The notes beneath the pieces were generated by a model. The model was not told where the DNA came from and did no database searches. It saw nothing but the letters and a program-made list of their open reading frames with translations. Positions 4,074 to 24,146 of a stretch of 39,477 bases of DNA are shown here, piece after piece. Within the stretch, counting starts at the first letter, position 1. Each line of letters begins with the position of its first letter. The position numbers and the translations under genes were made by a program. The DNA is from Thermoplasmatales archaeon (GTDB taxonomy: Archaea; Thermoplasmatota; E2; DHVEG-1). Location: the NCBI GenBank assembly GCA_020341795.1, contig CP070836.1, positions 1,749,722 to 1,789,198 on the forward strand, read 5' to 3'.

Positions 4074-4144
4074 GGGCGGGTAACAAAGTGGCTATGTGGC
4101 GGACTGCAGATCCGCATACGGGGGTTCAAATCCCTCCCCGCCCT
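4074..4144 (+). tRNA. tRNA-Cys (GCA), intronless, CCA not encoded
   Basis: Acceptor GGGCGGG/CCCGCCC, D-arm ACA/TGT, anticodon arm GCGGA-CTGCAGA-TCCGC, T-arm GGGGG-TTCAAAT-CCCTC, U73 discriminator. Confidence 0.96.
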
Positions 4145-16581: not shown

Positions 16582-17862
16582 ATGCAAGCAGTTAAGATAT
16601 TAGCAATTATAGTAATCATATCATTGTGTTCATCACAGGTTTTATCAATATCTCCAAAGATAGAATCAAATTTTTCAAACAAAGAGTTACCCGATAGTCA
16701 CGTTATAGAAAATGTACCATATTTCTCTCAAACAGAAGGATATTTCTGCTACTATGCATCAATTGCAATGATTTTTAGTCACATGGGACTTAACACTGAT
16801 CTTGAAGAAATAATATTTCTTGATGGTATTGGATATACACATTCTTATATTAGATCTGAAAAAATTATTAAATCAACACATTATGCTAGCTTAGATTTTG
16901 TTTTTAATTTATTTGGCGTTGAGGAAACCTGGTGGTATCCAAATAGAACATTATCAGATGAACAACGATGGAATTTATTTTTTTCAAATCTAAAAGAAAA
17001 TATATCAAATAACAAACCAGCAATTACAAGAGTTGATCCTTTTTCAATGGGCTCACTTCGAGATCAATTCATAATATCAGATAGTTTATGGAATGCACTA
17101 TTTCCACCTAGTCATCACCTTATTGTAATTGTTGGTTATGATGAAATTAATCAAAGTATCTGTTATCATGATCCAAATGCTGGATACTATGGTGATGGTT
17201 CCTTTGGTAATTATGCATGGATAGATATTACAGATTTTCAAAAAGCAGTTAAACTGGGAACATGGTCAGATTATCTTTTAACAACGTTCATTCAAACCTC
17301 AGATAGTTTTTCAAAAGAAGAAAGATTTGAGCAAGCATTTAAATTAAATATAGAAAAAATTAAAGGCAATTATCAATCTAATCAGAGTTTATTTGGTATA
17401 AATGCATCAAAAGAATTAAAGAAAGCATTTTCAGATGAACAACGTGTTAAAACAATTAAAATTTATAAAAAACTGGAAGATGCAGGATTTAGCTATATAT
17501 TATATGAAACATTGCAGAAACTTACAAAAATTTTATTTTCAAATAAAGCAAATATTTTTGATATCTTTATGGTGGGAAAAAGAATTCCCTTTGAAACAAC
17601 TAGTAATATAATCAAACAGATAGCAGAGTTTTTAGAAAACAACAATTTTCATCAAGATTTATGTACAAATCAATCCTCTTTTTTAAAACAAGAATCAGTA
17701 CTTTGGGCTAAATTTTCAAATTATTTCAAGGTTTTTAAGAGAAAAGGTAAACTAATATCAGATTTTCAAGCTAATATCATAATTAATAAAATGGAAAATG
17801 TGTTAGATGAAATTATTATTATTCAACAGCAAATTATAGATGATGGACAAGATTATTTTTAA
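16582..17862 (+). CDS. Secreted C39-like (BtrH-N / papain-fold) peptidase
   Basis: Signal peptide; VPYFSQ..FC..AS..M, HLIVIVGYD and YHDP give a Q/C/H/D catalytic set. Confidence 0.78.
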   Translation: MQAVKILAIIVIISLCSSQVLSISPKIESNFSNKELPDSHVIENVPYFSQTEGYFCYYASIAMIFSHMGLNTDLEEIIFLDGIGYTHSYIRSEKIIKSTHYASLDFVFNLFGVEETWWYPNRTLSDEQRWNLFFSNLKENISNNKPAITRVDPFSMGSLRDQFIISDSLWNALFPPSHHLIVIVGYDEINQSICYHDPNAGYYGDGSFGNYAWIDITDFQKAVKLGTWSDYLLTTFIQTSDSFSKEERFEQAFKLNIEKIKGNYQSNQSLFGINASKELKKAFSDEQRVKTIKIYKKLEDAGFSYILYETLQKLTKILFSNKANIFDIFMVGKRIPFETTSNIIKQIAEFLENNNFHQDLCTNQSSFLKQESVLWAKFSNYFKVFKRKGKLISDFQANIIINKMENVLDEIIIIQQQIIDDGQDYF

Positions 17863-19973
17863 TATTCAGTAATTTTGTATTTACCATGGACTGGTTCATA
17901 AATCTGACCTTGACGCTTAAGTCGGTCAAGTGCTTCTTCAACCTTGCTTGATTCAAGACCCTCGATTTCTGCTTCCTGTAAGATATCTCCACGAGTAGCA
18001 TTACCATCTTTTGATTCATTACCAAGTCGTTGAATAATATCCATAAGTGTTCGCATTCGGTCATGTTGGCTATGAGAGATACCAGTTGCAATAATATCAA
18101 TATCAAACCGTCCTGTTTCACGGTCCATCCCAACTCGTCGAAGATATTGGTCTATAATATAGATTGCACGTTTTGCATCATTAACGGTAACCTCTTGGCT
18201 AAGTCGAATCTTAGCACTAGCTTCAGAAAGTCTCACAAAAGCTTCTAGTTGACGTGGTGTAAAAGTAACTGACTCTTCTGATGAACTACGGAAATCAACA
18301 TAATAATTTTTAAGTATCTCAAGTGCTTCATCAGTCATAACTGGGAAAATTTTTCTTTTTGAATAAGCAATATATTTGCGCAGAAATTCTGGATTATATA
18401 TTGGTTCAACAATTTTCATAAACTCTTCTTGCTCTTTTTTCTTATGTTTTGATTTTTTAACACGCATAATTTGCTCGGTTAATTCTCCACCTTTATGTGT
18501 CCTTAGAATATGACTTGCTAGATCAGTGTCTCTTTCACGATTTGGTTTATCAAGAATTGAAAAAATAAGATCAAAACGAGAAAGAAGGGCAGGAGGCATA
18601 TTAATCTGTTCATGAATTGGTAGAAATTCATCAAAACGTCCAAGTTTCGGATTTGCAGCAGCAAGAATTGAGCATCGGGATTTAAGCGTTGCATTAATCC
18701 CTGCTTTAGCAACAGATATTTCTTGTTGCTCCATAGCTTGATGCATACTACTTCTATCACTTTCTTCCATCTTATCGATCTCGTCAATACATGCAATACC
18801 CATATCAGCAAGAACAAGTGCTCCTGCTTCTAGTGTCCATTGACCTTCACCAAATTCATCACGTACTGCAGCAGCTGTTAGTCCTGCTGCTGATGATGCT
18901 TTTCCAGAAGCATAAATACTTCGAGGGGCTAGTTTTGAAAGATAAACCAAGAGCTGTGATTTAGCAGTACCAGGATCTCCTACAAATAAAGTATGTATAT
19001 CACCACGCATACGAGTTCCATCTGGCATATTTTTTGCAAGACCTCCAAATAGTTGTAGAACAAGTGCTTCTTTTTCAATATCCATACCATAAATGGTTGG
19101 GGCAATACTTTTTTTCATTTTATTATATAAATCAGGATCTTTGCTTGTTTTTAGGATTTGTTTTTCATCTTCTGGTGTTATATCAACTTCTTCAAATGCT
19201 AGCTCTTGTGATTCAATACAATTTGCATCCATTGTCTTATCAAAACTTGTAAGTCTAAATGTACCACGACGTCTCTGCATACTATGCAGAATACCATTTA
19301 CAATTACTCTGTCACCAGGTGCTATTTCACCAACAAGGTCATCTTCAAGAAAAACACTTATACGTTCTGGTTGTGCACCACCACGTAATCCTTCAGGATT
19401 TTCCTGAATTTCAATTTTTTGTGAATCAATGAACTGTGAAAGAGTTGGTAGAAGCTTAAATGATGATAAACGTCCACATCCACCCTGATCTTCATAGCAT
19501 TCAGAGGGTTCTTTTAGAATATCTTCTTCTTGTTCAATTCGTATTATCGCTCCACATTTTGAACATTGGAAGGCACCAACTGTGAGTTTAGGTCTAACTT
19601 CTGTACGTTTCTTAACAAGTCCATCAATTGCCATAAATTTTCCAAGATGATTAGCACGAATATTACGTATTATAATTCGATTAGTATCAGGCAAGTTTTT
19701 AATACGAAAATGTAGAATAAGTTTAGATTCAGATGCAACATCTATATTTTTTAAAGCTTCTTCAGCATTATAAACAGCTTTATAAGGTTGATTTAGAAGA
19801 AGTTCTGCAAGTTTTGGATCAATCTCATCAATATCCCAATAATCAACATATAAACTTCGTTTATTAGGATATTCAAGTGCTACTGTTTCTATTTCGGATT
19901 TGTAATGTTCCTCTAAAAACTTCTGCCATTGAGCTACTAAACTCTCATCCTTCAATAACCGTACCAAAGTCAT
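17859..19973 (-). CDS. mcm: Replicative helicase MCM (no intein)
   Basis: Zn finger CSKC..C..GGC, GDPGTAKSQ, IDEIDKM, SRFD and winged-helix tail; start near ATG 19973 (TTG 19967 also possible). Confidence 0.98.
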   Translation of the reverse strand: MTLVRLLKDESLVAQWQKFLEEHYKSEIETVALEYPNKRSLYVDYWDIDEIDPKLAELLLNQPYKAVYNAEEALKNIDVASESKLILHFRIKNLPDTNRIIIRNIRANHLGKFMAIDGLVKKRTEVRPKLTVGAFQCSKCGAIIRIEQEEDILKEPSECYEDQGGCGRLSSFKLLPTLSQFIDSQKIEIQENPEGLRGGAQPERISVFLEDDLVGEIAPGDRVIVNGILHSMQRRRGTFRLTSFDKTMDANCIESQELAFEEVDITPEDEKQILKTSKDPDLYNKMKKSIAPTIYGMDIEKEALVLQLFGGLAKNMPDGTRMRGDIHTLFVGDPGTAKSQLLVYLSKLAPRSIYASGKASSAAGLTAAAVRDEFGEGQWTLEAGALVLADMGIACIDEIDKMEESDRSSMHQAMEQQEISVAKAGINATLKSRCSILAAANPKLGRFDEFLPIHEQINMPPALLSRFDLIFSILDKPNRERDTDLASHILRTHKGGELTEQIMRVKKSKHKKKEQEEFMKIVEPIYNPEFLRKYIAYSKRKIFPVMTDEALEILKNYYVDFRSSSEESVTFTPRQLEAFVRLSEASAKIRLSQEVTVNDAKRAIYIIDQYLRRVGMDRETGRFDIDIIATGISHSQHDRMRTLMDIIQRLGNESKDGNATRGDILQEAEIEGLESSKVEEALDRLKRQGQIYEPVHGKYKITEY

Positions 19974-20046
19974 TCCCCCCTCAAAAATCCGAAGGTAAAA
20001 AAATGATAACAAAATATTATTTATAAATATTTTTAGTAGGTCACTG

Positions 20047-20391
20047 AATGTTTTTTAGCGGGTGTGGAAACTCCGCGAGTGGTTGCACGTGGCAAAGATT
20101 GACTTCCCAGATGCATTCTCGACCCCGTTAACCCTTCGAGCATCAGCAGTTTGCGGTAAGGCTGCTCACTTCCGTGCCTCACCCGGTTCCCGCAACGAAG
20201 ATGTACATATAACCCTCCAGTTATATGTGGTCATCACCTCTAATCCCAAAGGACAAGGTCTCATAGTCAACAAATGGATCAATAAATGCTCGACGCATCG
20301 CCTCTTGGGTTCGACCTCAGCATGAAGGCGATTTCTGAAAACAGGGAACGCCTACCTCCCCAGTCTATTCCACACCTTTCGCCAAACCATT
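20047..20391 (-). other. Bulge-helix-bulge (BHB) processing stem enclosing the SRP RNA
   Basis: 5' arm AATGGTTT-GGCG-AAA-GGTGTGGAA pairs with 3' arm TTCCACACC-CGCT-AAA-AAACATT: a 4-bp central helix with a 3-nt bulge 3' of it on each strand. Confidence 0.8.
20061..20376 (-). ncRNA. ffs: Archaeal SRP RNA (7S)
   Basis: Helix 1 GGTGTGGAA/TTCCACACC; Alu-like GGGAGGTAGGCGTTCCCTGT...AAATCGCC; helix 6 ACATATAACT-GGAG-GGTTATATGT; helix 8 GGTGAGGCAC-GGAA-GTGAGCAGCC; ~316 nt, GC-rich. Confidence 0.95.
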
Positions 20392-20395
20392 TTGT

Positions 20396-20653
20396 TTACA
20401 GTGAACGTCGCATAATTGTGAACAAATTACGAAAGAATTGATAAAATATTAAAGCAAGGGCGATAGCAATAACAACCAGGTTAATACTTACGCTTATCCA
20501 AAGATCTCTGCTACTAGTATCAGGATTTACCAGAAATGATCTAACAAGTAGTCCTATGAAGAGTGCTACTATGAAAAATAGCACTATGTTAATGTACACT
20601 GACCACTTGTACCAAGTTTTTTTGCTAGTCTGACGAATTATGTTTTCAACCAT
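20396..20653 (-). CDS. Small 2-TM membrane protein, hypothetical
   Basis: 85 aa, two hydrophobic segments, AGGAG SD and an upstream TATA box. Confidence 0.8.
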   Translation of the reverse strand: MVENIIRQTSKKTWYKWSVYINIVLFFIVALFIGLLVRSFLVNPDTSSRDLWISVSINLVVIAIALALIFYQFFRNLFTIMRRSL

Positions 20654-20726: not shown

Positions 20727-23700
20727 TCAGAAGAAATCATCAAGTTTAGTGGTTTTTACTTTGTCACTAATAAATAATGAATCAATAGATTTTTCAACAA
20801 GAACAATACGTTGACGAGCATAAGGAGAAATATTATATCTTTGTGCAATTTCCTTTGAAATTTCAAGGTATTTTTTTACAGATTTCTCATGAACAGTAAG
20901 GGTGAGCTTACCGTTACATTTGTTACAAACACCTTGTAAAGGTGGACGTCTATAAGTAATATTACAAGTAGGACATCTAACTGATTGTTTACTAAAAGCT
21001 CTAAGATTTCCAAGAATATCAGGTAGAAAATGCTTTTCGATTACTTTATAGGCAACATCTGCTTCATCAACAGCTCTTATCTTTGCAGCAAGGCTAAGTT
21101 GTGCATTCATTTTATCCATCATTGTTTTGAGGGTTTTATAATTAGACATCTTTGGACCCTCAGATATATCATCTGTATCATGTGTAAAACCAAAATTTTC
21201 AAATTGTAGTGTTGTACCAAGATGAGAACCTACTAAACCCATAATTTGTTCAAGGTCTTTCGAATGTTCATGACGTAAAGTAGCCTCATAAAAATCCAAT
21301 GGATAACGAGAAAGTATATCCACATTATGTGCTTCCTTGTCTACCTCTGATGGATCAATACGCGTAGTAAGGATAAGTGGTAAATCCATTTTACCTCCCC
21401 GTTTTTCAGGGATGTAAGAATGAGAAAAATTCAAAAGAGCATCCATAAGAAGCATTAAACCATCTTCATCACCATCTGCATTCCGTCGTTTTGATGCATG
21501 ATAAAATGGATGTGCATAGCAAACTTGTGCATCTGTAAATCCAATAATTCGTGAAAGGGATCCTGCAGATGTATGAGGTGCAAGCCCAACAGTTAGATGA
21601 CCTGTTAGATTTTCTAGTTTTTTTAATTTATAAAACCGATTCATGTCATAGAATTTCCATAACAAATCGTCAATGAATTTAGTAACCTGTACAAAATATT
21701 CAGCACATGATTTTGATATTATTACATCTTGTACTTTCAACTCAACGATTTGATCATCAGATACAAGGTCATTATTCAGATAATCTTTTGTATATCCTAG
21801 CTCTTTAAGTCTTTCAATTGATACATTTATTTCTTTTGGTTTGAAATGAGTAAGTGGTGCATCTGTCATATCAAATCTTATTGTTCCATCTTTAAATACA
21901 TGTACTCCATGTTTTGCTCGAAGTATTCCTTTTTCAAGAGGTTCTGGTGTTTTATGTTTTGATATTGTTCCTATAACACCCTTAATTGTTTCTGGGAGAG
22001 TTCTTTCTTTTATGTTTTCTTGTGCAATTTTTAACTCTTCTGCAAGGTTTATTTCAAGTGTTTCTATGTATCCATTCCCCATATCTGTGTGATTTCCACA
22101 ATTGCAGAATAGCCGGTGAGTTTTTTTTCTACAATTTGAACAGTATCTTACACCTGCTTCAATTTCAATTTTTCCAAGTTCTGCAGCATTGCGTATTAGT
22201 CTTTGATTACCTCCATAGTTTCCAATTGGGAAAAGCACATGCGGTGGTGGTCTCATTTTTCGAGCTGCTGCTTTTTCTGGTCTTCCCATTCTGGTTCCAA
22301 TTCTAAAAGGTGCTCGTGGTTGAATACGTATTCCGGATTGTTTTGATACAAGATTTACTGGATTTTTTTCATTTGTTGTTTTTTGATAACGATTTGATTC
22401 AACAATTTTTCCATTTTTAACATCAAGTCCGCAACATTTGATTAATGGATATGAATATCTGTTAAGAATAAGAGTATCATATTTTTGACTATGGAGTGCT
22501 CCCAGGTTGATCAATATTTGTTTTATATCATCATTTTTTGGTAATAATAATGAATTATTTGTTAAGTTACCATTTTCTAAGATATATTTTGATAAATGTA
22601 TTATATCTTCAACCTTTATATCATGCCAAAATAAGTTATAATAAGGATGCAATGGGATTTTATATTTTTTAGAAAGCCCATATGCTTCATCCCAGAGTGG
22701 TTTATGTAAATCAATATCACTTCCAAAATCATTTATTATTTTAGTTAGAGTTTTTTCATCTGCTTGTTTGATATTTTTAAATGTATAATCTTTAGGTAAA
22801 AGATCTAATTTCTTTTGAAGATCTTGTATCCACCACTCATAAACATAACTTGAATCTGGAAGAAGAGCATTATTTTCAATAAATTCACCAAAAGGAATAA
22901 GTATTTCACCAAGATCTATTATTTTTTTAATTTCATTTTTTTTAATATCTTTAAGCGTGTTTAATTGTACAAGATTTCCATTTCGAAGAAGACATATCGG
23001 ACCTTCTATAGTGTTACATGGCGTTCCAATTGTCCCCTTTCCAGGTCTTTCAGTTTTTAACTGAGTTCCAACAGCAATAAAACCATCAAGTATGAACATG
23101 GATGCAGGATTAATCGCAGTAGATGCAAGACCTGCGGTTCTTGCACGACCATATCTGAGTCTAAAACCACCTTTTCTTGATGGATGAGAAAAAACAGGAC
23201 GTCCTGCAATTACATCTCCTATATATTTTGAAGAAGAATCAATTACTGGAATTTCATCTGTTTTTTTTTCATCACTTATAGTTTTAGATTTAAATATATC
23301 TAAAAAATCCCATTCTCTAAGTTTTAGTTTTTTTACATGTTTTAATATTTTTGGAGCCTTTAAACATAAACCTTCAGCGATAACTAGACAAGCTCCTCCA
23401 CGTAGACGGTTTGTACCAACACGAGGCAGATCTCTATATCCAGTTACTTCTTCATCTTCTGTACCTTCACCGTTTATACATATTGGGCAACCTCTAACGA
23501 TTTTATCTATTTCTTCAATACTTGGAGTATATTGTAGATGTTGTGCTCTCTTGTATAAAGGTATTTCTTCCTTATATCTTTCAATTTCTCCATCTGTTGG
23601 TATATATGGTCCGATTTTCATTTCACGACGTACTATATCTGCGATTAGAACACTCATTGCCTGTCCGGTTCCACCGGCTGATCTTATTGGTCCTGAAAAA

Positions 23701-24146
23701 TATAAGTCAATAAAATTAGTTCCATCATTATTGTTACCTAGTTTAACTTCAGCAATCCCCTCAAGTGGTGCAACAAGAACTCCTTCTGTTAGTATCGCAA
23801 GGCCTGTTCTAATTGCTTGGTCTAATGCTTCTTCTGATGTTTTGAAATTATATTTTTTTTCCTTTACAATTTCTTTTGCTATTTCAATAGATACTAATTC
23901 TCTATTTCCAATTTTTTTTGTTACTTGTCTGATTTTTGGAGCGATATTTTTTGGTCCGACAAGTTGTTCTACTCGTGCTGCAAGATCAAGTGCTTGAGGT
24001 ATTTCTACATTAAATTCAGGGTCAAGTCCTTTCTTTCTTGCTTCAATAGCTATTTCATAGCATAAATCAATGTTTTTTTGTAAATTTTGAAAATACTCAT
24101 GCATTTCTGAGCTAGCAACAATATTTTTCGAAAGGTCCCCACCCAT
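20727..24146 (-). CDS. polC: DNA polymerase D large subunit DP2 (no intein)
   Basis: GPIRSAGGT, GGFRLRYGR, RMGRPEKA, catalytic DGDED, C-terminal Zn finger and PIP-like KLDDFF. Confidence 0.98.
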   Translation of the reverse strand: MGGDLSKNIVASSEMHEYFQNLQKNIDLCYEIAIEARKKGLDPEFNVEIPQALDLAARVEQLVGPKNIAPKIRQVTKKIGNRELVSIEIAKEIVKEKKYNFKTSEEALDQAIRTGLAILTEGVLVAPLEGIAEVKLGNNNDGTNFIDLYFSGPIRSAGGTGQAMSVLIADIVRREMKIGPYIPTDGEIERYKEEIPLYKRAQHLQYTPSIEEIDKIVRGCPICINGEGTEDEEVTGYRDLPRVGTNRLRGGACLVIAEGLCLKAPKILKHVKKLKLREWDFLDIFKSKTISDEKKTDEIPVIDSSSKYIGDVIAGRPVFSHPSRKGGFRLRYGRARTAGLASTAINPASMFILDGFIAVGTQLKTERPGKGTIGTPCNTIEGPICLLRNGNLVQLNTLKDIKKNEIKKIIDLGEILIPFGEFIENNALLPDSSYVYEWWIQDLQKKLDLLPKDYTFKNIKQADEKTLTKIINDFGSDIDLHKPLWDEAYGLSKKYKIPLHPYYNLFWHDIKVEDIIHLSKYILENGNLTNNSLLLPKNDDIKQILINLGALHSQKYDTLILNRYSYPLIKCCGLDVKNGKIVESNRYQKTTNEKNPVNLVSKQSGIRIQPRAPFRIGTRMGRPEKAAARKMRPPPHVLFPIGNYGGNQRLIRNAAELGKIEIEAGVRYCSNCRKKTHRLFCNCGNHTDMGNGYIETLEINLAEELKIAQENIKERTLPETIKGVIGTISKHKTPEPLEKGILRAKHGVHVFKDGTIRFDMTDAPLTHFKPKEINVSIERLKELGYTKDYLNNDLVSDDQIVELKVQDVIISKSCAEYFVQVTKFIDDLLWKFYDMNRFYKLKKLENLTGHLTVGLAPHTSAGSLSRIIGFTDAQVCYAHPFYHASKRRNADGDEDGLMLLMDALLNFSHSYIPEKRGGKMDLPLILTTRIDPSEVDKEAHNVDILSRYPLDFYEATLRHEHSKDLEQIMGLVGSHLGTTLQFENFGFTHDTDDISEGPKMSNYKTLKTMMDKMNAQLSLAAKIRAVDEADVAYKVIEKHFLPDILGNLRAFSKQSVRCPTCNITYRRPPLQGVCNKCNGKLTLTVHEKSVKKYLEISKEIAQRYNISPYARQRIVLVEKSIDSLFISDKVKTTKLDDFF

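Follow-up and report, generated by a model that had tools for sequence, protein, structure and literature searches.

We analyzed a 39,477-nt stretch of the genome of a Thermoplasmatales archaeon (contig CP070836.1 of assembly GCA_020341795.1; here called the window), in which a collinear gene for signal recognition particle (SRP) RNA is framed by a motif of the bulge-helix-bulge (BHB) type. We consider it very probable that EndA, the tRNA splicing endonuclease, cuts the transcript of this gene within the motif and that RtcB closes the product to a circular SRP RNA. In the mechanism that we propose, the SRP RNA would be transcribed with a short leader and a short trailer. These would form a helix-bulge-helix-bulge-helix by pairing with one another as well as with the ends of SRP helix 1. 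EndA would cut in both 3-nt bulges, and RtcB would join the new ends. The product would be a covalently closed SRP RNA of 323 nt, running from 20377 to 20055, with helix 1 capped by a 7-nt loop, CGCUAAA. We infer EndA and RtcB as the acting enzymes, the exact cut within each AAA, and the circle as the working form of the RNA. The motif itself is not a product of chance, as its conservation, its covariation, and a joint in RNA attest.

The SRP RNA gene, its flanks, and their conservation

The minus strand of the window matches Rfam family RF01857 (Archaea_SRP) from 20062 to 20375 with 185.5 bits (gathering score, 96.5; E value, 4.6e-44). The alignment covers the whole model, positions 1 to 317, in order, and the gene is therefore full-length and collinear; it is the sole RF01857 match in the genome. 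The 5′ flank (minus strand, 20391 to 20368) reads AATGGTTT-GGCG-AAA-GGTGTGGAA, and the 3′ flank (minus strand, 20069 to 20047) reads TTCCACACC-CGCT-AAA-AAACATT. An original prediction, made from the sequence of the window, had described here a 9-bp inner helix, a GGCG/CGCT helix, AAA bulges, and an outer helix with one unpaired G, in an RNA that begins ~20 nt after the stop codon of an 85-amino-acid (aa) gene. All of these elements are in the sequence as claimed. The inner helix has 9 bp, and the outer one has 4 bp, one unpaired G, and 3 bp; the stop codon (20398 to 20396) precedes the outer helix by 4 nt and the beginning of the Rfam match by 20 nt. A 4-bp helix thus separates two 3-nt bulges, one on each strand, and helices (h and h′) are present on both outer sides of the bulges, which is the hBHBh′ arrangement (Table 1). 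In the minimum free energy (MFE) fold and partition function, the 9-bp inner helix, the central helix GGCG/CGCU, and the AAA bulge on the 5′ side all had pair probabilities of at least 0.99.

BHB-like geometry is common in this genome, which has a G+C content of 30.6% and whose single “contig” is a metagenome-assembled genome (MAG) of ~180 pieces joined by 100-N spacers (83.9% complete; no match for small-subunit rRNA was found in it). A loose scan of the 1.79-Mb genome gave 157 pairs on the plus strand alone. A stricter scan of both strands gave 42 matches, almost all with AT-rich 5-bp inner helices. One match of the scans, at genome positions 401562 to 405618, was dropped because it spans an N spacer. 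The genome-wide scans did not reveal a second convincing BHB-framed RNA. Since the geometry alone is not rare, the case rests on conservation, covariation, and the RNA joint.

Of 41 close relatives, 38 have a match to RF01857, as do 144 of 151 genomes taken from the phylum at large; together, these are ~174 different genomes. We read the flanks in 104 of these: the 38 close relatives, 26 new loci, and 40 chosen genomes, one to three per family (families are numbered f1, f2, and so on). The flank test that we applied did not select for pairing. Helix 1 was extended while paired, a bulge of n bases was then allowed, and the next four bases were asked to pair with the bases just 3′ of helix 1. 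Denominators are 103, because the available flank was too short at one locus. In 72 of the 103 genomes, four of four central pairs come after a 3-nt 5′ bulge; with bulges of 0, 1, 2, 4, 5, and 6 nt, the counts were 0, 0, 1, 1, 0, and 3. All 48 genomes of families f1 to f7 passed. A single genome of the four in f9 did so, and the other three show GGCT-AAA ... GGCT-AAA by eye, with an irregular helix 1. The test was also passed in f11, f14, f15, f17, f18, f20, f21, f24, f25, f29, f32, f33, f36, f37, f41, f42, and f45. Three passes are doubtful (L077 and L078 of f23 and L098 of f39), with pyrimidine bulges, TTC or CTT, and a T run. The helix sequences of L077 and L078 differ, and their four “central” pairs may be chance or an extension of a bulged helix 1.

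Families f12, f27, and f30 failed the strict test; by eye, they have relaxed forms of the motif, in which the bulge has 4 nt or the central helix 3 bp and the outer helices are long. The test failed in f10, f13, f16, f19, f26, f28, f31, f34, f35, f38, f40, f43, f44, and f46. In most of these families, by eye, the RNA is preceded at ~30 nt by a TATA-like box and followed by a T run.

Where the motif is present, its letters vary. The central helix is GGCG/CGCT in 34 cases, GGCG/CGCC in 9, GACG/CGTC in 5, and GGCY/GGCY in 9, with single cases of GGTG/CACT, GAGG/CCTC, and GATG/CATC. The 5′ bulge is AAA in 32 relatives, ATA in 20, and AGA in 5, and the 3′ bulge is AAA in 57 of 69 motif-bearing relatives. 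Outer helix positions 1 to 4 are paired in fractions of 0.86, 0.74, 0.72, and 0.61, versus 0.45 to 0.40 when partners are swapped between families. The mean contiguous length of this helix is 2.8 bp, versus 0.76 bp for swapped partners, and it is often 0 to 1 bp in f2 to f4.

We then scored covariation for 19 pairs in an alignment of 66 motif-bearing sequences. These sequences had been preselected for a paired central helix, so that the 100% pairing there holds by construction, whereas the variety of pair types does not. Overall, 87.9% of the cells were paired, versus 68.1 ± 0.9% in shuffles (0 of 500 reached the observed value) and 35.7 to 47.9% with slid partners. The covariation score was 0.626, versus 0.261 for shuffles and 0.131 to 0.168 for slid partners. 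Changes on both sides occurred in all 19 pairs, with 1, 7, 3, and 9 such cells in the central pairs. The first outer pair covaries as well (UA, 32; CG, 13; AU, 7; GC, 3; UG, 2; GU, 1; unpaired, 8). The covariation of the SRP flanks across relatives, proposed originally as a check, is therefore borne out by a motif in register in 72 of 103 genomes and by compensatory changes in all four central pairs.

The motif is also present at L206, from an “uncultured Thermoplasmatales archaeon” whose SRP RNA is 88% identical to that of the window over its full length, and at L223. In the phylum families that lack the motif, the 5′ regions of the SRP RNA look, by eye, like those of the named Aciduliprofundum, Thermoplasmata, and Thalassarchaeaceae loci. 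None of 18 named archaeal SRP loci of other groups passed the flank test; the positive control did. These 18 came from Archaeoglobaceae, Methanosarcina, Methanobrevibacter (2), Methanoperedens, Methanospirillum, Halobacteriales (2), Aciduliprofundum (2), a Thermoplasmata MAG, Thalassarchaeaceae, Sulfolobales, Ignisphaera, Bathyarchaeia, Nanoarchaeota (2), and Heimdallarchaeum. They form a small sample, without Thermococcales, drawn from a helix-8 pattern scan that gave at least 120 loci, mostly bacterial. Judging from these likenesses, the motif-bearing clade is large and apparently belongs to the Thermoplasmatota. Its confinement to this clade is suggested by the small sample of 18 loci. The SRP leader and trailer are partly complementary at the Heimdallarchaeum (L197) and Ignisphaera (L227) loci. 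At L227, helix 1 was extended by 10 bp in the flank test, with no BHB spacing.

RNA joints and the enzymes that may make them

The RNA evidence consists of assembled contigs from metatranscriptome runs X15 to X18, which belong to four studies and carry marine sediment, soil, and sediment labels. Six RNA runs hold 17 to 25% of the sampled words of a 1,001-nt stretch around the gene, which is about the share of the SRP RNA. DNA runs hold 0.66 to 0.98 of the words of the linear locus, and a head-to-tail arrangement in the DNA of the sampled strains is unlikely. All contig cover in X15 to X18 lies within 20054 to 20379. Contig pieces start at 20054 in all four runs, and listed pieces reach 20379 in X15 and X18. 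No contig in these runs contains GGCG or anything beyond 20379 or below 20054, and none covers either flank or the 85-aa open reading frame (ORF).

In X15, a 0-mismatch contig from 20235 to 20379 continues with nine letters that match uniquely at 20057 to 20065 (0.03 matches expected by chance). In X16, the loose letters at this position number eight and equal the first eight of these nine. From the other side, a 0-mismatch contig of X17, from 20054 to 20140, is preceded by 12 letters that match uniquely at 20365 to 20376 (0.00 expected). Read from both sides, the joint is ...CCACACC-CGCT-AAA-GGTGTGGAATAG..., and the predicted sequence is CGCT-AAA-GGTGTGG, with exactly three A. The circle junction that the original prediction proposed to look for in metatranscriptomes is thus present in X15, X16, and X17. 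Two contigs of X18 carry 30 loose letters that we read by eye as the 3′ terminus of a related SRP RNA (25 of 30 like the window, with CGTT as a variant of the central strand). An automated listing gave a single joint, from 20379 back to 20098, in run X16 with a side of 39, and it comes from a relative. We conclude that relatives show the same head-to-tail joining.

The canonical EndA cut falls after the second base of the bulge. Such cuts in each AAA would leave two A and one A, and the product would therefore run from 20377 to 20055 and be 323 nt long. This was the product originally predicted, and it agrees with the three A of the joint and with the cover limits at 20054 and 20379. Cleavage by EndA within the bulges is indirectly suggested by RNA cover that ends in both bulges, by a joint that keeps three A, and by the presence of an EndA gene.

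A trivial explanation of these data would be an unprocessed linear SRP RNA that starts at GGCG, with joints that are artefacts of assembly or reverse transcription. The sides of the joint are short, and they come from assembled contigs. However, the identical joint was found in runs of different studies and from both sides (9, 8, and 12 letters), the 9- and 12-letter ends are unique in the window, and GGCG is itself missing from the contigs. We regard an artefact as extremely improbable.

Several points weigh against excision and closure at these bulges. The 3′ flank has six A in a row, and because of them the energy model prefers a shifted 3′ bulge. It pairs the leader UUU with the first three A (P = 0.957) and sets the unpaired 3′ AAA three bases further out. 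The canonical register has a P of 0.005 and is 4.0 to 4.9 kcal/mol costlier (−116.7 or −115.8 versus −120.7). Hence, the inner helix, the central helix, and the 5′ bulge of the hBHBh′ fold originally proposed stood up to folding, but the register of the 3′ bulge did not. The outer helix is short and weak in the window and in relatives, and it is near zero in f2 to f4. The joint is known from contigs, with short sides of 8 to 12 letters, and the one joint in the automated listing is that of a relative. With AAA in both bulges, the joint tells how many A are retained in total, three, and not where each cut falls. The contigs give no proportion of circular molecules, no ends, and no strand. The preselection of the covariation alignment belongs here too. 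Set against the folding result, the three A kept at the joint fit cuts in the canonical register, despite the preference of the energy model for a shifted 3′ bulge.

The genome encodes a single EndA. Its 346-aa ORF matches the N-terminal domain twice and the catalytic domain twice, and it aligns end to end with a 350-residue NCBIfam endonuclease model. We take this two-repeat architecture to be the α′2 type. According to the part of PMC5829648 on which we draw (as for all papers cited here with a PMC or bioRxiv number, unless said otherwise), only the (αβ)2 and ε2 types of EndA cut noncanonical motifs, and an α′2-like enzyme would fit the canonical motif found here. RtcB is also encoded (594.7 bits). 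A collinear, nonpermuted SRP RNA that is excised and circularized, as first proposed from the sequence, thus agrees with a conserved motif, an RNA joint, and the presence of genes for both enzymes.

The usual substrate of the splicing pathway in this genome is the intron of tRNA-Trp (G000:C1:1216680-1216823, outside the window), which is 68 nt long and lies at the canonical position. When drawn by eye, its BHB is ambiguous in register, and it was not used as a control. By eye, the intron also holds box C/D-like motifs. Such motifs are a feature of tRNA-Trp introns of Euryarchaeota. The RNase P RNA of the genome (G000:C1:887506-887803, minus strand, outside the window) has a leader, TTGTGTT, and a trailer, AACACAA, that extend its terminal helix by 7 to 8 bp. 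No bulges interrupt this processing stem, which thus differs in kind from the one around the SRP RNA.

Other nucleases together with an Rnl-type ATP-dependent RNA ligase might also produce a circle, in which case the BHB-like shape would be merely an extended, bulged helix 1. Circular joints of SRP and RNase P RNAs have been reported in Thermococcales, Sulfolobus, and Haloferax, and the parts of the sources at hand (PMC3326292, PMC12558985, bioRxiv 10.64898/2026.03.23.713588) do not mention a BHB; PMC9014305 links Rnl to circular C/D box RNAs. Against this route, the RNA limits lie in both bulges, and three A remain at the joint, the number expected from two canonical cuts. Moreover, bulge and helix have constant lengths of 3 nt and 4 bp throughout the clade, and the RNase P RNA of the same genome has a plain leader-trailer stem and no such motif. 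The only Rnl-type match in the genome, which is 83.9% complete, is to PF09414 with 25.4 bits, below the cutoff of 27. We consider the Rnl route very unlikely.

A circle formed by EndA and RtcB could also be a short-lived intermediate or a side product, comparable to circular pre-16S rRNA, with a working SRP RNA that is linear, having been reopened or trimmed. BHB-made circular pre-rRNAs are reopened in several archaea (PMC7038931, PMC12918454), and in Thermococcus barophilus the joints of circular SRP RNA are far rarer than those of circular pre-rRNA (bioRxiv 10.64898/2026.03.23.713588). That contigs give neither ends nor proportions leaves room for such a fate. On the other hand, 0-mismatch contigs cross the joint unbranched in three runs, and no other continuation appears at 20054 or 20379, which is a weak hint of a persisting circle. 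The functional form in Thermoproteus is circular (PMC4731332), and a stable circular 23S rRNA is reported for many archaea (PMC12918454). On balance, a transient circle appears rather unlikely. A circle that serves as the working SRP RNA would likely benefit the cell in two ways: by protecting the ends of the RNA and by releasing it from transcription units that it has in common with its neighbors.

Precursor and neighboring genes

Excision and circularization may proceed as described from a precursor whose promoter is concealed within the 3′-terminal part of the 85-aa ORF. The leader would then be a few to ~40 nt long, and the SRP RNA would not be an intron of an mRNA. In the families that lack the motif, a TATA-like 8-mer starts, by eye, 29 to 31 nt before the 5′ end of the SRP RNA. 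Families f2 to f4 have A/T-rich boxes 32 to 35 nt before the central helix, which would give leaders of 2 to 5 nt and fit outer helices of 0 to 4 bp. The window has ATTATG 33 nt and AATATTTTA 67 nt before GGCG. Moreover, no RNA contig lies on the 85-aa ORF, though the depth over the SRP RNA is 12 to 190. However, the boxes lie inside coding sequence in an A/T-rich genome and may be due to chance or to codons; the box of f2 encodes a conserved FFRN or FFKN, and f1 has the motif at a different distance. Cotranscription with an upstream gene also occurs in the wider clade, as a tRNA-Ala lies 9 to 22 nt before the SRP RNA match in f17 and f30, and at L014 the stop codon of the upstream ORF is inside the 5′ bulge. 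We give a hidden promoter slightly less than an even chance. An origin of the precursor in the mRNA of the 85-aa gene is about as probable as not.

The 85-aa ORF has two hydrophobic stretches, no Pfam match, and only subthreshold NCBIfam matches. Upstream proteins were scanned for at 34 long-flank loci, which all belong to relatives of the same class. Comparable two-helix proteins of ~79 to 123 aa end 0 to 31 nt before the SRP RNA at 14 f1 loci and at 5 of 7 f2 loci. The 85-aa protein and its f1 and f2 counterparts are conserved and have a basic C terminus (...FFRN...RRSL), and in both families the gene has stayed immediately ahead of the SRP RNA. At L014, an f2 locus, the small upstream ORF includes the outer and central strands, and its stop codon, TAG, reaches across the 5′ bulge as far as the first base of the inner helix. 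The predicted cut falls inside this stop codon, and by eye, ligation of the flanks would recreate TAG. Such religation of the flanks is plausible by analogy with Haloferax, in which the leftover spacers that flank the pre-rRNAs are also ligated (PMC7038931).

A different neighbor is found at L073 (f17) and at L087 and L088 (f30), where a tRNA-Ala(CGC) on the same strand ends 9 to 22 nt before the SRP RNA match. This distance leaves no room for a promoter, and the tRNA and the SRP RNA therefore appear to be cotranscribed in these families. The outer helix of leader and trailer is ~13 bp long, with one mismatch, at L087 and L088.

In f4 and f9, the close neighbor is downstream. An ORF starts 7 to 10 nt after the Rfam end at 12 of 12 loci (L004, L008, L039, L040, L042, L044 to L048, L050, and L060), which is 0 to 3 nt after the predicted 3′ cut; at L004 and L044, its ATG begins with the third base of the bulge. 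The ORF is 470 to 492 aa long at 11 of these loci and is cut by the contig end at the twelfth. Two of the ORFs were scanned, and both match DNA polymerase small-subunit families (PF04042, OB fold, and phosphoesterase). If the ORF is cotranscribed with the SRP RNA, cleavage by EndA would yield a leaderless mRNA for the small subunit of DNA polymerase D (DP1).

The neighbors of the SRP RNA gene in the window are listed with the parts of the motif in Table 1. The stretch that separates the SRP trailer from the MCM gene contains a strong TATA-like run, TTTATAAATA.

Table 1. Parts of the BHB motif and neighboring features in the window
Feature	Positions	Strand	Basis or remark
Outer helix, 5′ strand (AATGGTTT), part of the leader predicted to be cut off	20384-20391	−	Pairs with 20047-20053
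Central helix, 5′ strand, GGCG	20380-20383	−	Sequence and fold; pair probabilities of at least 0.99
5′ 3-nt bulge, AAA; predicted cut between 20378 and 20377	20377-20379	−	Unpaired in MFE fold; RNA contigs end at 20379
Predicted excised SRP RNA of 323 nt, containing 20062-20375; circle would be closed by loop CGCU-AAA	20055-20377	−	Rfam, RNA contigs
Central helix, 3′ strand, CGCT	20057-20060	−	Sequence, fold, covariation
3′ 3-nt bulge, AAA, in canonical register; predicted cut between 20055 and 20054	20054-20056	−	Sequence; relatives
Outer helix, 3′ strand, AAACATT, part of the trailer	20047-20053	−	Sequence; relatives
Upstream 85-aa ORF with two hydrophobic stretches	20396-20653	−	ORF translation
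tRNA-Cys(GCA)	4074-4144	+	Window neighbor
MCM helicase	17859-20012	−	Pfam match
1,139-aa ORF, candidate DNA polymerase D large subunit	20727-24146	−	Read as such, no domain scan

Relation to known circular RNAs and biological meaning

The closest known case is the permuted SRP RNA of Thermoproteus tenax and Thermoproteus uzoniensis, for which cleavage by the splicing endonuclease was demonstrated in vitro and the circle was seen as joint reads (Plagens et al. 2015; PMC4731332). As in Thermoproteus, the leader and trailer form a BHB, a joint is present in RNA, and the product would be circular. Unlike the Thermoproteus genes, the gene described here is not permuted, as RF01857 aligns with it from 1 to 317 in order. 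In Thermoproteus, the joint lies in helix 8b, and circularization restores the molecule; here, the natural ends are joined at helix 1, and the linear form would already be complete. The lineage is also a different one, and many families share the motif. In the view of Plagens et al. (PMC4731332), permuted SRP genes go back to ancestors with simple BHB elements, and the arrangement found here resembles such an ancestor.

BHB stems around archaeal pre-16S and pre-23S rRNAs likewise lead to circular pre-rRNAs and, in some lineages, to circular 23S rRNA (PMC7038931, PMC12918454). As in those rRNAs, a stable RNA would here be freed from a longer transcript by a BHB of leader and trailer and circularized. 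The substrate here, however, is SRP RNA, and the outer helix has a few base pairs, in contrast to the long processing stem of rRNA. A BHB-bounded element within a transcript that contains an mRNA, which is putative here, is known from the cbf5 intron of Crenarchaeota (PMC3326292). Exons of cbf5 are ligated, and the reading frame is restored, whereas the element described here would lie in an untranslated part.

Circular forms of SRP RNA have also been reported elsewhere: Danan et al. (2012; PMC3326292) saw parts of the 7S RNA of Sulfolobus and Halobacterium as circles, and later work lists circular SRP RNA joints in Haloferax, Sulfolobus, and Thermococcus (PMC12558985, bioRxiv 10.64898/2026.03.23.713588), with no BHB mentioned in the portions of the latter two that we cite. 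Head-to-tail joints within or around the SRP RNA are thus common to Sulfolobus, Halobacterium, Haloferax, Thermococcales, and the archaeon studied here. The circles of Sulfolobus and Halobacterium, however, are segments of the RNA and, in the part of the source used, have no tie to a BHB at the gene ends. Sulfolobales, Halobacteriales, and Methanosarcina are among the 18 loci tested above, and they lack the flank motif. The term “SRP” is absent from PMC12918454 and PMC9014305. Full-text literature searches, which did not cover supplements or most subscription journals, returned no report of a BHB that frames a collinear SRP RNA gene.

Circularization of SRP RNA by means of a BHB was known before only from two hyperthermophilic Thermoproteus species, where it repairs a scrambled gene. 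Here, the gene on which it would act is intact and collinear. Dozens of genera in f1 to f9 have the motif as a fixed feature, many further families of the phylum have it as well, and the joint is present in public sediment and soil metatranscriptomes. The ancestral state postulated by Plagens et al. for permuted genes may have looked like this arrangement. SRP RNA would thereby join rRNA and the introns of tRNA as a conserved substrate of EndA in this phylum, and heat stability as the sole reason for a circular SRP RNA is put in question. The finding also raises the question whether archaeal mRNAs carry stable-RNA “introns” in their untranslated parts whose excision shapes the expression of neighboring genes.

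A wider reading is possible, though we hold it to be doubtful as a whole: the working SRP RNA may be a covalently closed circle across a large clade of archaea from sediments and soils, apparently Thermoplasmatota, in which the gene may have become a BHB-bounded insert in the transcripts of other genes. The hosts in this wider reading, equally tentative, would be the 3′ part of the mRNA of a small membrane protein in the window, f1, and f2; a position behind tRNA-Ala in f17 and f30; and one before the small subunit of DNA polymerase D in f4 and f9. If this is true, EndA would couple the production of SRP RNA to the expression of the host genes, and in f4 and f9 the 3′ cut would create a leaderless mRNA. 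A circular, nonpermuted SRP RNA in archaea that are probably not thermophiles would then argue against protection from heat as its only purpose.

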